Origin: Bacteroidota bacterium
GTDB taxonomy: Bacteria; Bacteroidota; Rhodothermia; Rhodothermales; UBA10348
Length of the DNA stretch: 64,000 bases
Reading direction: 5' to 3'
Assembly: GCA_029262835.1 (NCBI GenBank)
Contig: JAJCYQ010000012.1
Span: 3,503 to 67,502 of the forward strand
This document shows positions 5,659-8,160 of the stretch, piece after piece. The number at the start of each line of letters is the position of its first letter. Positions within the stretch are counted from its first letter, which is position 1. The translations under genes and the position numbers were made by a program. Below the pieces are notes generated by a model, which saw only the letters and a list, made by a program, of their open reading frames with translations, did not search any database and was not told the DNA's origin.

Positions 5659-6786
5659 ATGCAATCCATCCATCGATCCATGAAACTGCCCATTGCCCTC
5701 ATGCTTCTTGGCCTCGTCGCCAGCCCCCTTCTGGCGCAGGAGCGCGACCACGTGACGGTCGAGGACTACGATCCCGTGACGCTCCTCAAGGTCCCCACGC
5801 ACGAGGTGACGGCGGCCAAATACCCGTTCGTGGACGTGCATAGTCACTGGTTCGGGGCATCGACCATGCGGGCGGGCCAGATCGATACACTCGTCCAGGA
5901 AATGGACGGCATGAACATGGCCGTGATCGTGAACCTCTCGGGGTGGTCGGGGGAGCGCCTCGCCGAAGGCATTGAGAACATGGAGGGGCGGCATCCATCG
6001 CGCGTCGTGACGTTCGCCAATCTGGATTTCGAGGGATTCGGAACGGATGAGTGGACGCGCGGCGCGGTGCGCCAGCTCAGGGAGGATGTCGAGGTGCACG
6101 GTGCGCGCGGTCTCAAAATCTACAAGAGTCTGGGGATGCGCACGGTCGATGTGGACGGCAACCGCGTCGCGGTGGATGATCCGCGGCTGGGCCCCATCTG
6201 GGCATTGGCAGGCGAGCTCGGCATTCCGGTCCTCATCCACTCGGCGGACCCGATGGGGTTCTGGCTGCCGAAGGATGAGCACAACGAGAAGTGGCTCGAG
6301 CTCAAGCTGCGCCCGCAGCGCTGGATGCTGCCGCTCGGCGGTCCGTCCTTCGAGGACCTGCTGGCCGAGCAGCACCGCGTGTTTGCCCGCCACCCGGAAA
6401 CGACGTTCATCAACGCACACCTCGGCTGGCTGGCGCCGGACCTTGGGCGCCTCGGCGAGCTCTTCGACCGGTATCCGAATGTCTATTCCGAGGTTGGCGC
6501 CGTGCTCTATGACCTTGGGCGGCAGCCGTTTACGGCCCGCGAGTTCCTGACGCGGTACAAAGACCGGATTCTTTTTGGCAAGGATGCCTACGCGGTCGAA
6601 GAGTACCACACGTACTTCCGCACGTTCGAAACGCGCGACGAGTATTTCGACTACTACCGCAAGTACCACGCGCAGTGGAAACTCTACGGGCTCGACCTGC
6701 CCGACGACGTGCTGCGCCACATCTACTACAAGAACGCACTGCGCATTATTCCGGGGCTGGATCCGGCGCTGTTTCCGGTGGAGTAG
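5659..6786 (+). CDS. Amidohydrolase-family (TIM-barrel metal hydrolase, amidohydrolase_2-like) secreted protein
   Basis: Signal peptide MKLPIALMLLGLVASPLLAQ, metal-binding DVHSHW near the N-terminus, and later LIHSADP and NAHLG motifs typical of the family. Confidence 0.7.
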   Translation: MQSIHRSMKLPIALMLLGLVASPLLAQERDHVTVEDYDPVTLLKVPTHEVTAAKYPFVDVHSHWFGASTMRAGQIDTLVQEMDGMNMAVIVNLSGWSGERLAEGIENMEGRHPSRVVTFANLDFEGFGTDEWTRGAVRQLREDVEVHGARGLKIYKSLGMRTVDVDGNRVAVDDPRLGPIWALAGELGIPVLIHSADPMGFWLPKDEHNEKWLELKLRPQRWMLPLGGPSFEDLLAEQHRVFARHPETTFINAHLGWLAPDLGRLGELFDRYPNVYSEVGAVLYDLGRQPFTAREFLTRYKDRILFGKDAYAVEEYHTYFRTFETRDEYFDYYRKYHAQWKLYGLDLPDDVLRHIYYKNALRIIPGLDPALFPVE

Positions 6787-8140
6787 ACGTTGATGATGCA
6801 TCACCGGTAAATATGCCCAGCAGGTCCTGGATCCGCCGGGGGATGGCCGAGGGACGGCTTCCTGTGCTGGCGCCGCTGCTCTGCCGGACCGCCGAAAGAA
6901 GTACTTCAAGCGCGGCGTGGGGGCGGTAGGCCCGGAGAAACGCCGTGGCCTGTTTCTCTATGAGTTTCCAGCGTCCAGAGATGGAAGTGGCAGCGCCGTA
7001 TTCGGGGCTCGCTTCCTGTGCCTGTCCCCGCGCCGGTTTCCGCGCGGAGGCCACGACCTCGGCCGCCCATGCCCCTCGTTGCAGGATATCTTCGGACCAT
7101 GGAATAGGCTTCGATGGGGCCGCCGCGAGGAGCAGGCCGAGGCGAAGCGCCTCGACGCTGTGATTTTCCAGAACGGAGCGGACGGTGACGGCATTGCCGA
7201 GACTTTTCCCCATCTTCGTTGTCGACATGAGCACCATGTCGTGTCCGTGGTAGCGCCGCATGGGAACGGGCGAGGTCATGAGACCGACTTCGTGCAGGAA
7301 CCGGGCGAGCCCGAGATACAGGAGCGGGTAGATCCAGGTGTCGTATCCGCCGTGGAATATGTCGATTCCTGCCAACGGCGCCCCTGGAGCGCCCGCGCGC
7401 TGGCCGGGCGCCGCAAACGGCTCGGCTTCCGGATCCCAGGCGACAAAGCACCAGAGATCGTCGAGCACGCAGTCGAGCGTGTTGGGGTCGGGCTCGGCGG
7501 TTCGGACACCGCAGGAGGGGCAGGTCATGGGGACAGGAGCTGTCCAGGGGAGCAGGTCGTCGGGAATGGCAACAGGCCCGCATCCATCACACAAAACCAT
7601 CGGGACGGGGGTGCCGTACGGACAGGGCCGCGACACGCGCCACGGCCCGAGCTCCCGGCCGTGCCCGGCGAGGATGTTTTTGGCCCGCTGCGACCATTCG
7701 GGAAGGGCGGCGAGCGTGGCGGCGCCGTCAAGCCCGGTGCGTGCATCCATTGGAGTGATCCAGACCTTCTCGTCCGCATGCCAGTGCGCGCGGCCATGCT
7801 GCACAAGGAGTTGGAAGAGGCGCTGTGTGGAGCGCATCATGGAGGCGTCGTTTGTCGAGCGGATGCGCGCGTAGTCGTAGCTGAGACGCAGGCGCTGGAA
7901 GTCCTCCGTCATGCGCGCGGCGACGCGGCGTGAGAAGGTGTGCGGATCTACGCCCTCGGCCTGGGCGCGCTCCAGGATGGGCCACCCGTAGGCGTCGAAA
8001 TTGGTCGTGTAGATGACGTCGAAGCCTTCGAGCCGGTGGAAACGGGCGTCGACATCGCCCAGCACATAGTTGCGCGCGTGTCCGACGTGCAGATCGCCGT
8101 TGGTGAACGGCGCGGAATCGAACGCAACGTATGGCAGCAT
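6746..8140 (-). CDS. Class I aminoacyl-tRNA synthetase-like protein, LeuRS-type catalytic core without CP1 editing or C-terminal domains
   Basis: HIGH-type LHVGHARNY and KMSKS-type KMGKS motifs. LeuRS-like blocks: NFDAYGWPILERA, LRLSYDYAR, PWRVSRPCPYGTPVPMVLC.GCGPVAIPDDLLP, LDCVLDDLWCF, IDIFHGGYDTWIYPLLYL, ALRLGLLLAAAPSKPIPW. At 464 aa it is far shorter than the ~800+ aa of canonical LeuRS. Confidence 0.7.
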   Translation of the reverse strand: MLPYVAFDSAPFTNGDLHVGHARNYVLGDVDARFHRLEGFDVIYTTNFDAYGWPILERAQAEGVDPHTFSRRVAARMTEDFQRLRLSYDYARIRSTNDASMMRSTQRLFQLLVQHGRAHWHADEKVWITPMDARTGLDGAATLAALPEWSQRAKNILAGHGRELGPWRVSRPCPYGTPVPMVLCDGCGPVAIPDDLLPWTAPVPMTCPSCGVRTAEPDPNTLDCVLDDLWCFVAWDPEAEPFAAPGQRAGAPGAPLAGIDIFHGGYDTWIYPLLYLGLARFLHEVGLMTSPVPMRRYHGHDMVLMSTTKMGKSLGNAVTVRSVLENHSVEALRLGLLLAAAPSKPIPWSEDILQRGAWAAEVVASARKPARGQAQEASPEYGAATSISGRWKLIEKQATAFLRAYRPHAALEVLLSAVRQSSGASTGSRPSAIPRRIQDLLGIFTGDASSTSTPPETAPDPAPE

Positions 8141-8160
8141 GAGTACAACTGGATTGTACG

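Follow-up and report, generated by a model that had tools for sequence, protein, structure and literature searches.

Several described systems join a paralogue of an aminoacyl-tRNA synthetase (aaRS) to an unusual tRNA or to an unusual task. In ProRSx-tRNAProX (PMC10404621) and PylRS-tRNAPyl, an aaRS paralogue is encoded beside an atypical tRNA whose anticodon departs from the ancestry of the enzyme, and the module is accessory and patchily distributed. GluQRS/YadB, MshC and the MetRS paralogue of Aravind et al. 2010 (PMC2922099) have kept the catalytic core, lost RNA-binding modules and taken on a dedicated task. LeuRS itself has paralogues with disabled editing or charging and probably non-translational roles, namely LeuRS-I of Sulfolobaceae and LeuRS2 of Halobacteria (PMC9437257). 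On the RNA side, tmRNA, viral 3' tRNA-like structures (TLSs), B. cereus tRNA-Other and YrlA fuse a tRNA-like acceptor/T-arm to extra structured RNA, and several of them are charged by synthetases, while the thrS operator and T-boxes place a tRNA-related element ahead of an aaRS-type gene. Here we describe a locus that resembles each of these in some respect, found in a 64,000-nucleotide stretch of a Rhodothermales genome (Bacteroidota bacterium, contig JAJCYQ010000012.1; the whole stretch is called the window below). It consists of a gene for a minimal, 464-aa LeuRS-derived protein and, directly upstream of it, a gene for a tRNA-like RNA of 204 nt.

The pair departs from each of these systems in a different way. 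The tRNAs of ProRSx and PylRS have the usual size and are proven to serve the ribosome as substrates, whereas the window pair, known from sequence alone, combines a 125-nt D-loop domain with a drastically reduced enzyme. GluQRS, MshC and the MetRS paralogue descend from GluRS, CysRS and MetRS and are not accompanied by a tRNA-like RNA gene of their own; cupin and Lys-N6-monooxygenase neighbours, which moreover define the MetRS paralogue (PMC2922099), are both missing at the window locus. LeuRS-I and LeuRS2 are archaeal-type, full-length, bind normal tRNALeu and have no dedicated RNA; they are the only LeuRS entries in a 2022 review of aaRS duplications, which contains no LeuRS-derived aaRS-like protein (PMC9437257). 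tmRNA and YrlA replace the anticodon arm, whereas the window RNA keeps a full cloverleaf with the extra domain in the D loop, and tmRNA, viral TLSs, tRNA-Other and YrlA use housekeeping enzymes, not a private paralogue. The thrS operator mimics anticodon arms only and T-boxes bind tRNA without resembling it, whereas the window RNA belongs to a class that also occurs unlinked to such a gene. We found no description of the paralogue family, the RNA or the module in the searchable literature, and we know of no precedent for a tRNA whose D loop holds a conserved domain of ~125 nt or for a LeuRS reduced this far.

By sequence and by fold, the nearest relatives of the 464-aa protein are bacterial LeuRSs. 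Its N-terminus reads MLPYVAFDSAPFTNGDLHVGH / MLPYVAFDSAPF. Pfam matches it to tRNA-synt_1g, tRNA-synt_1e and tRNA-synt_1, with no match to tRNA-synt_1c (PF00749, the GluRS-type catalytic domain used as the criterion for GluQRS), and its top NCBIfam model is leuS_bact (TIGR00396), which matches in three separate stretches at 117.3 bits and does not reach the curated cutoff of 548.4. Against the PDB, phmmer places residues 10-119, 163-306 and 295-359 on residues 41-150, 418-580 and 623-686 of T. thermophilus LeuRS. The equivalent of the RDWxISRQRYWG segment, GPWRVSRPCPYGTPVP, follows straight after the first Rossmann half, which confirms the jump to the post-CP1 region claimed in an earlier, sequence-only reading of the window, and all sequence blocks quoted there are present. 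The HIGH and KMSKS motifs named in the same reading are found as LHVGH (residues 17-21) and KMGKS (residues 309-313) and are conserved in the family, with H18, G20 and H21 invariant and K309 and K312 nearly invariant. A zinc-type cysteine quartet is formed by C184, C187, C207 and C210. The AlphaFold model, built from a 29-sequence alignment, has a mean predicted local distance difference test score (pLDDT) of 85.7 and a predicted TM-score (pTM) of 0.88, and its 49 best Foldseek matches in the PDB are all LeuRS (TMq 0.74-0.81), the best target coverage being that of Mycoplasma mobile LeuRS (3ziu), which is naturally without CP1. The protein shares catalytic fold, ancestry, HIGH, KMSKS, the RDWxISR-type motif and the zinc quartet with this enzyme and with canonical bacterial LeuRS (T. 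thermophilus 1h3n/1obc, E. coli 4aq7). The M. mobile enzyme illustrates that a LeuRS can work without CP1. Unlike canonical LeuRS, the window protein is stripped of domains, has a fully altered substrate pocket and has a partner other than tRNALeu.

The reduction is extensive. The protein has no ZN1 module, no CP1 editing domain, no Leu-specific insertion and no C-terminal tRNA-elbow domain, and the greater part of its anticodon-binding bundle is gone as well. phmmer against the PDB, the family alignment, AlphaFold and Foldseek agree on a LeuRS-type core without CP1 and without the C-terminal elbow domain, as had been proposed, and the list of deletions is now longer by ZN1 and the Leu-specific insertion. 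CP1 (PF13603) has no Pfam match in the 464-aa protein, and residues 151-417 of T. thermophilus LeuRS have no counterpart. The ~60-aa C-terminal domain is missing from all 23 aligned family members. The protein ends soon after KMSKS, as stated earlier, but not all that follows the motif is low-complexity sequence. Residues ~350-445 are modelled with confidence as helices and correspond, in the alignment, to the opening helices of the LeuRS anticodon-binding domain (family motif YRPHAA); disorder is restricted to ~450-464. Only ~4 helices of that bundle are retained. The C-terminal domain of LeuRS binds the tRNA elbow, and its loss throughout the family counts in favour of the pairing because the elbow is the very part that is remodelled in the partner RNA.

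While the chemistry of the family looks intact, the leucine pocket does not. The aspartate that binds the alpha-amino group (D80 of T. thermophilus LeuRS, D49 in the 464-aa protein) is invariant or almost so. If the pocket is lined, as we take it to be, by M40, F41, Y43, F501, S504, Y507, H541 and H545 in T. thermophilus numbering, every aligned position is altered family-wide (M40S, F41A, Y43F, F501V, S504D, Y507C, H541T and H545P/L), the residues in the window protein being S9, A10, F12, V225, D228, C231, T268 and P272. The substrate is therefore probably not leucine.

When 1.84 billion cluster representatives were searched exhaustively with a profile, ~28 representatives of the family were recovered, 425-740 aa long and scoring 314-798 bits, against at most 270 bits for ordinary LeuRS. 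Word-indexed homologue searches returned just 3-6 relatives, and the family is visible only in the exhaustive search. Public annotations call its proteins 'leucyl-tRNA synthetase' or 'class I tRNA ligase family protein'. We define the paralogue family (P0001-7 and P0012-28) by signature motifs, a score above the break and monophyly, all of which hold for the window protein. The motifs FDSAPFxNGxLHxGH, LDCxxDDxWCF and FHxGxDTxxYLxLY (core FHxGxDTxxY) replace (E/D)MFPYPSGxLHxGH, DTFxxSSWY and GGxEHAxLHLLY of canonical LeuRS. In the phylogenetic placement that the sequence-only reading had called for, a neighbour-joining tree, the family is monophyletic with respect to canonical LeuRS in 100/100 bootstrap replicates. 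The window clade (P0001-3), likewise monophyletic at 100/100, is nested as sister to a Rhodothermales clade, and the long forms are basal. Long forms have a CP1-like insertion (PF13603 in P0014 and P0005) in which the threonine-rich T(T/S)RPDT editing block is not conserved, and mid-length forms have lost CP1 and retained part of Anticodon_1. The nested position of the minimal form and the basal position of the long forms mark the 464-aa protein as the end point of a stepwise loss of domains.

The gene is not debris. Compared with its 82.5%-identical orthologue in L038 (metagenome-assembled genome (MAG) 'Bacteroidota bacterium OFTM240'), the ratio of nonsynonymous to synonymous divergence (dN/dS) is 0.075/0.36 = 0.21 (0.18 in the core and 0.29 in the tail), which indicates that it is under purifying selection. 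A frameshifted or fragmented leuS was rejected, since the tblastn matches of four canonical LeuRSs to the window are confined to 6881-8131, with no piece of CP1 or of the C-terminal region among them; this and the dN/dS bear out the earlier assignment as a paralogue. A decaying remnant, that is a truncated or frameshifted leuS pseudogene beside a broken tRNA gene, would account for a product very short for a LeuRS and far under the leuS cutoff, and for an RNA that tRNA finders reject. We nevertheless give it almost no credence: the frame is intact in all relatives, the catalytic motifs are invariant, the fold is confidently predicted, and the RNA described below is near-invariant at 29% synonymous divergence and spans at least five phyla.

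The partner RNA is a tRNA cloverleaf with a conserved D-loop domain, supported by covariation (Table 1). Its length of 204 nt exceeds the ~70-95 nt of an ordinary tRNA, and the D-loop insert measures about 100-125 nt. The remaining segments are UA after the acceptor stem, the 5' segment of the D loop (A-CUGG-CCCAAAC), the insert followed by AU + A ahead of the 3' strand of the D stem (GAGC), a single G after that strand, and the variable region AGGA. The motif GAUACGCC and a CACUG-type element of the window insert are common to relatives. ARAGORN left the RNA uncalled in the window and in relatives and reported no tmRNA either, and an Rfam scan of the window at gathering thresholds also left it uncalled. 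A permissive Rfam scan (E<=10) of 8050-8550 returned tRNA (RF00005) at 21.8 bits against a threshold of 29, over the 3' two-thirds only, together with YrlA, which we rejected as a chance match (15.2 bits against a 69-bit threshold); the scan showed no T-box and nothing beyond these two.

Conservation was assessed on 43 unique RNAs, drawn from protein-ascertained loci and from scans for exact pattern matches in JGI metagenomes and in GTDB genomes, one per species. They come from Rhodothermales, other Bacteroidota, Planctomycetota, Acidobacteriota, Pseudomonadota and Actinomycetota, and the RNA module is seen in at least five phyla. Among 37 distinct core sequences, the 21 pairs of the cloverleaf are paired in 99.1% of cases compared with 40-48% in slid controls, and none of 500 shuffles reaches the observed values. 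Three pairs of the anticodon stem and two of the acceptor have changed on both sides, and in L043 and L044 an acceptor pair shows a compensatory switch from C6:G67 to U6:A67. The insert-bearing D-loop segment is 118-146 nt long in all 43 RNAs, across several phyla, and the motifs GGAUG...GAUACGCC, GAGCGA and CUAsCACUGC recur across clades. In a Rhodothermales subgroup of eight sequences, RNAalifold finds that 20 of 49 insert-helix pairs still pair through changes on both sides. The window and L038 RNAs differ at 2 of 204 nt, while the synonymous sites of the adjoining gene differ at 29% (pS 0.29); we regard this comparison as the strongest single argument that the RNA is constrained. The triplet GUU occupies the anticodon position in 19 of the 43 RNAs and in 15 of the 21 with a strong LeuRS-like gene downstream. 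The encoded CCA, to which the sequence-only reading had given weight as an aberrant feature, is not conserved: it is present in 11 of 43 RNAs, and relatives carry GCACAC or GCAAUC. The tRNA-Ser and tRNA-Val genes of the window have CAC and CAA trailers, as do the RNA genes of L001, L006 and L007, and CCA is presumably added enzymatically.

The linkage of enzyme and RNA is equally consistent. The RNA lies 5-50 nt upstream of the gene in seven of seven distinct loci ascertained through the protein (the window, L001, L006, L007, L043, L044 and L045), and 21 unique RNAs from the pattern scans of DNA are followed directly by a strong family gene. L001 and L006 are syntenic with the window, L007 has a different neighbourhood and 32% protein identity, and L043 (a Pseudomonadota MAG), L044 and L045 encode long enzyme forms; the linkage thus extends to loci whose gene neighbourhood differs and whose proteins are just 32-38% identical. 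Conserved catalytic motifs, and a gene that stands beside the RNA in every protein-ascertained relative, are the reverse of what the sequence-only reading had named beforehand as counting against itself. That reading had also placed a tRNA-like RNA directly upstream of the paralogue, where the covariation-supported cloverleaf now lies. The spacer hairpin it described is present, with a loop of 5 nt, not 6, and coordinates shortened accordingly; it is confined to the window and L038 and is not a terminator because a T-run is missing. We found no terminator between RNA and open reading frame (ORF), and in L001 and L007 the gap from discriminator to ATG is just 5-7 nt. Upstream of the RNA, a box TATGTT(G/C/T)(A/G), which presumably resembles the Bacteroidota -7 box, is kept in the window, L038, L001, L006 and L009, and sigma-70-like boxes are found in other lineages. 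From these signals, the likely transcript order is promoter, RNA, ORF. The RNA can also occur without the enzyme. In L033 (=L091, L093), a Rhodothermales RNA at 2315-2520 (anticodon AUU) keeps its cloverleaf intact and is followed, past the acceptor stem, by a T-run, but the 5.4 kb downstream contain no LeuRS-like gene; uvrB is near, as in the window. Here the RNA appears to persist as a stand-alone gene.

Taken together, we consider it highly probable that enzyme and RNA form a functional partnership, and we favour, by a lesser degree of confidence, a dedicated pair in which the enzyme aminoacylates the 3' end of the RNA. An editing-less but catalytically competent core, derived from bacterial LeuRS by stepwise domain loss, would be transcribed behind the ~204-nt RNA that is its dedicated partner. 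RNase P, 3' processing and CCA addition would then free the tRNA-like RNA and leave a nearly leaderless mRNA. Because HIGH, KMSKS and the alpha-amino-binding Asp49 are intact, the enzyme would be expected to activate an alpha-amino acid with ATP, probably one other than leucine, and to pass it to the 3' end of the partner RNA. Since the anticodon-side and C-terminal elbow-binding modules are lost, recognition would proceed through the almost invariant acceptor/T-arm and the elbow domain. Such a mode is consistent with bacterial LeuRS, which takes no account of the anticodon and relies on the discriminator and on D-loop/elbow architecture. More speculatively, the charged RNA may be an orthogonal aminoacyl carrier or donor, kept apart from ordinary translation by its bulky elbow domain.

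Several observations weigh against this reading. Almost every known tRNA-binding module has been lost from the minimal enzyme, and what is left would have to suffice for productive RNA binding; Sulfolobaceae LeuRS-I makes the adenylate yet fails to charge tRNA (PMC9437257). GUU is retained across phyla even though an anticodon-binding module is missing from the minimal enzyme; the model explains neither this nor the C33 of the window clade, nor why the discriminator is G or A among the RNAs, though A73 is critical for LeuRS. Comparison of the LeuRS-like loci revealed no conserved third gene that would point to a downstream acceptor. The acceptor and T arm were fixed by the search pattern, and their near-invariance in pattern-ascertained loci is partly ascertainment bias. 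Finally, in a crude test the longest closing stem of an insert averages 5.1 bp with its own partner strand and 4.55 bp with those of other members and does not outdo this control, the closing sequences being similar and GC-rich throughout. The case for insert structure therefore rests on the subgroup RNAalifold result, on conservation of motifs and length, and on the 2/204 divergence.

The arrangement of the locus invites an alternative in which the RNA has no function of its own and acts in cis as a tRNA mimic, a 5' leader bound by the paralogue, by a housekeeping synthetase or by RNase P for translational autoregulation or for maturation of a leaderless mRNA, much as in the E. coli thrS operator or in tRNA-punctuated processing. 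RNA and gene do indeed share a strand in every case, and the terminator-free gap to the start codon measures 5-50 nt (up to ~330 nt); where only 5-7 nt separate discriminator and ATG, as in L001 and L007, the structure of the RNA must affect initiation. However, a decoy would have no need of the conserved ~125-nt domain, of G18G19, of the full T loop or of an anticodon loop of 7 nt whose triplet is conserved by lineage; the stand-alone RNA of L033 has a T-run and no family gene downstream, Actinomycetota RNAs lie downstream of or apart from their aaRS-like neighbour, and the paralogue itself would be left without a function. We consider a mimic acting in cis unlikely. The sequence-only reading had offered both a dedicated RNA-enzyme pair and autoregulatory mimicry; the pair is preferred because the RNA has a promoter-like element, the hallmarks of a processed tRNA and stand-alone occurrence.

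Two further explanations accept that enzyme and RNA work together and differ in the chemistry or the destination. A specialised decoding tRNA, either intact or in two pieces after excision of the D-loop insert, might read the Asn codons AAC/AAU in programmed mistranslation or recoding, as with tRNAProX/ProRSx, or in code expansion, as with tRNAPyl/PylRS. A canonical cloverleaf with an acceptor and T arm suited to EF-Tu and an anticodon loop would fit such a role, as would the conservation of GUU across phyla and of other anticodons within lineages; the long helix closing the insert could be an RNase III-type excision site, and adjoining dedicated aaRS/odd-tRNA gene pairs have precedent (PMC10404621). 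Yet the 125-nt elbow domain would, on general knowledge, clash with ribosomal elbow contacts, the constrained sequence, motifs and length of the insert argue for a function in the mature RNA and not for a discarded spacer, and the window clade has C33 in place of the universal U33. We also know of no excision system for bacterial D-loop inserts, and a decoding role seems to us rather improbable. Alternatively, the enzyme may make an aminoacyl-adenylate and transfer the amino acid elsewhere than to a 3' end, to an internal modified base, as GluQRS does to Q34 of tRNAAsp, or to a small molecule, as MshC and the MetRS paralogues do, with the RNA as cofactor or scaffold. Truncated class I paralogues without an anticodon-binding domain are known to act in this way (GluQRS, MshC; PMC9437257, PMC2922099), GUU is a queuosine-type anticodon and the pocket is remodelled. 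Against this, where an enzyme is linked so tightly and exclusively to a tRNA-shaped RNA whose acceptor end is intact, the best explanation is that this end is used, and no conserved small-molecule pathway genes lie nearby. The C33-G34-U35 of the window clade would presumably not be a TGT substrate either, and we rate this chemistry as having a small chance of being right.

Returning to the dedicated pair charged at the 3' end of the RNA, we note that the RNA class extends beyond LeuRS-like loci. Its anticodons include GUU, AUU, ACU, UUG, UAA, UCU, CCU, AUC and UUU. In Actinomycetota (Solirubrobacterales and relatives) the same RNA class occurs with other anticodons and adjoins other synthetase paralogues. 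Next to UCU and CCU copies, an ArgRS-like gene (PF00750, with HLGH retained) ends 30-90 nt upstream of the RNA, so that the type of the neighbour matches the anticodon. Divergent class IIb (Lys/Asp/Asn-type) synthetase-like genes also lie near Actinomycetota copies, and UCU copies in L047, L073 and L096 lie upstream of a degenerate LeuRS-like protein without HIGH. The order in L037 is ArgRS-like gene, RNA[UCU], TauD/TfdA dioxygenase gene and a 280-aa ORF, and AUC copies in L031/L049/L058/L075 have a TauD-like gene next downstream. This recurrence with several aaRS paralogues suggests that the RNA is a general scaffold for private synthetase paralogues, and an amino acid may possibly be tailored while on the carrier RNA. 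As a tentative proposal, which we hold to be possible although somewhat doubtful, elbow-expanded RNAs would be unrecognised bacterial 'aminoacyl-carrier RNAs', each charged by a private LeuRS-, ArgRS- or class IIb-derived paralogue, the amino acid then being tailored (for example by adjoining TauD/PhyH Fe/2OG dioxygenases) or passed to an acceptor, either non-ribosomal or of a specialised ribosomal kind. The module as such is a dedicated synthetase-paralogue/tRNA-like pair, a concept already known; it could be categorically new if the carrier proposal is right.

Further loci were seen along with these. L029, L008 and L076 are additional Actinomycetota loci in the tabulation of RNA, aaRS-like and dioxygenase genes. 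In L043, a gene for a PhyH-family Fe/2OG dioxygenase with a SEC-C motif (6357-7298) directly follows the 719-aa LeuRS-like gene, the sole LeuRS-like locus of this kind. The metagenomic RNA of L082 (loop CCGUUAA, CCA encoded) has, in place of a LeuRS-like gene, a 280-aa ORF at 78-920 downstream whose N-terminus looks Asp/Glu-racemase-like by eye (IGIVGGLGP). The DNA pattern also caught true tRNA-Arg(CCG) genes of Lysobacterales and other Gammaproteobacteria (L010, L020, L025-L027, L034, L035, L040 and L041). These have a copy of their own first ~19 nt (GCGCCCGTAGCTCAGCTGG) ~130 nt upstream, followed by a conserved GC-rich spacer, and the duplicated start may be another small RNA or an integration scar.

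The coordinates of the window features are collected in Table 1. The convergent Amidohydro_2 gene is syntenic in the close clade, where its 41-nt overlap with the paralogue is kept in L001 and L006, and is missing from distant loci; local synteny explains this neighbour, and it was set aside as a functional partner. PADLOC reported no defence-system match for the 464-aa protein, one long homologue or the neighbouring amidohydrolase, and the plasmids and phages searched contained canonical leuS only, with no family members and no RNA matches. With housekeeping genes as neighbours in addition, an origin in a mobile element or a defence system was rejected. An AAA_14/DUF4143 ATPase gene at 9975-11219(+) adjoins hisF, is missing from the syntenic L001 and L006 and may be a local insertion. 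The minus strand at ~29.4-30.9 kb carries a class II LysRS-type gene of canonical form, which matches the LysRS-like query from L047 at 334 bits in tblastn and is presumably the housekeeping lysS. ORF callers read through the RNA gene (window ORF 7948-8262(-); L006 6001-6195), and P0003 carries a spurious N-terminal extension of ~50 aa (...ERWSV(T/K)PEERVRFPSGV...) translated from it. Such read-through extensions could help to find further copies of the RNA in protein databases.

Table 1. Positions of the enzyme gene, the tRNA-like RNA and flanking features in the window
Feature	Position	Strand	Details
Minimal LeuRS-derived class Ia synthetase paralogue, coding sequence	6746..8140	-	464 aa; ORF list, Pfam, NCBIfam, phmmer, AlphaFold, Foldseek
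tRNA-like RNA gene	8161..8367	-	204 nt to discriminator G (8164) + encoded CCA (8163-8161)
Acceptor stem of tRNA-like RNA	8367-8361 / 8171-8165	-	GCGCCCG 5' strand, CGGGCGU 3' strand
D stem of tRNA-like RNA	8358-8355 / 8214-8211	-	GCUU 5' strand, GAGC 3' strand
Inserted structured domain in D loop, after G18G19	8218..8342	-	closing helix GGCUCCC/GGGAUGCC; motif GAUACGCC; CACUG-type element
Anticodon arm of tRNA-like RNA	8209-8193	-	CUGGU-CCGUUAA-ACCAG
Anticodon-position triplet GUU	8200..8202	-	7-nt loop CCGUUAA, C33 instead of U33
T arm of tRNA-like RNA	8188-8172	-	GCGGG-UUCGAUU-CCCGU
Spacer hairpin GTACAA-TCCAG-TTGTAC	8143..8159	-	between CCA and ATG; only window and L038
Promoter-like TATGTTGA element	8402..8409	-	upstream of RNA; sequence comparison only
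Convergent Amidohydro_2 gene	5659..6786	+	41-nt overlap with 3' end of paralogue; context only

Synthetase paralogues and odd tRNAs are the raw material of pyrrolysine coding, tRNA-dependent amino-acid synthesis, programmed mistranslation and tRNA-dependent natural-product chemistry. The window adds a naturally minimised class Ia synthetase of 464 aa, roughly half of LeuRS, paired with an elbow-expanded tRNA, and it raises a testable question, namely which amino acid is loaded and where it is delivered. The RNA would be a new structured non-coding RNA class that tRNA and Rfam annotation miss and that gene callers translate through. If the enzyme charges the RNA, the pair would show how little protein suffices when the RNA supplies the recognition surface, and it would be a ready-made orthogonal pair for synthetic biology. 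Should the wider class prove to consist of carrier RNAs, it would represent a shadow aminoacylation system running parallel to translation, with the window module as its most reduced member.

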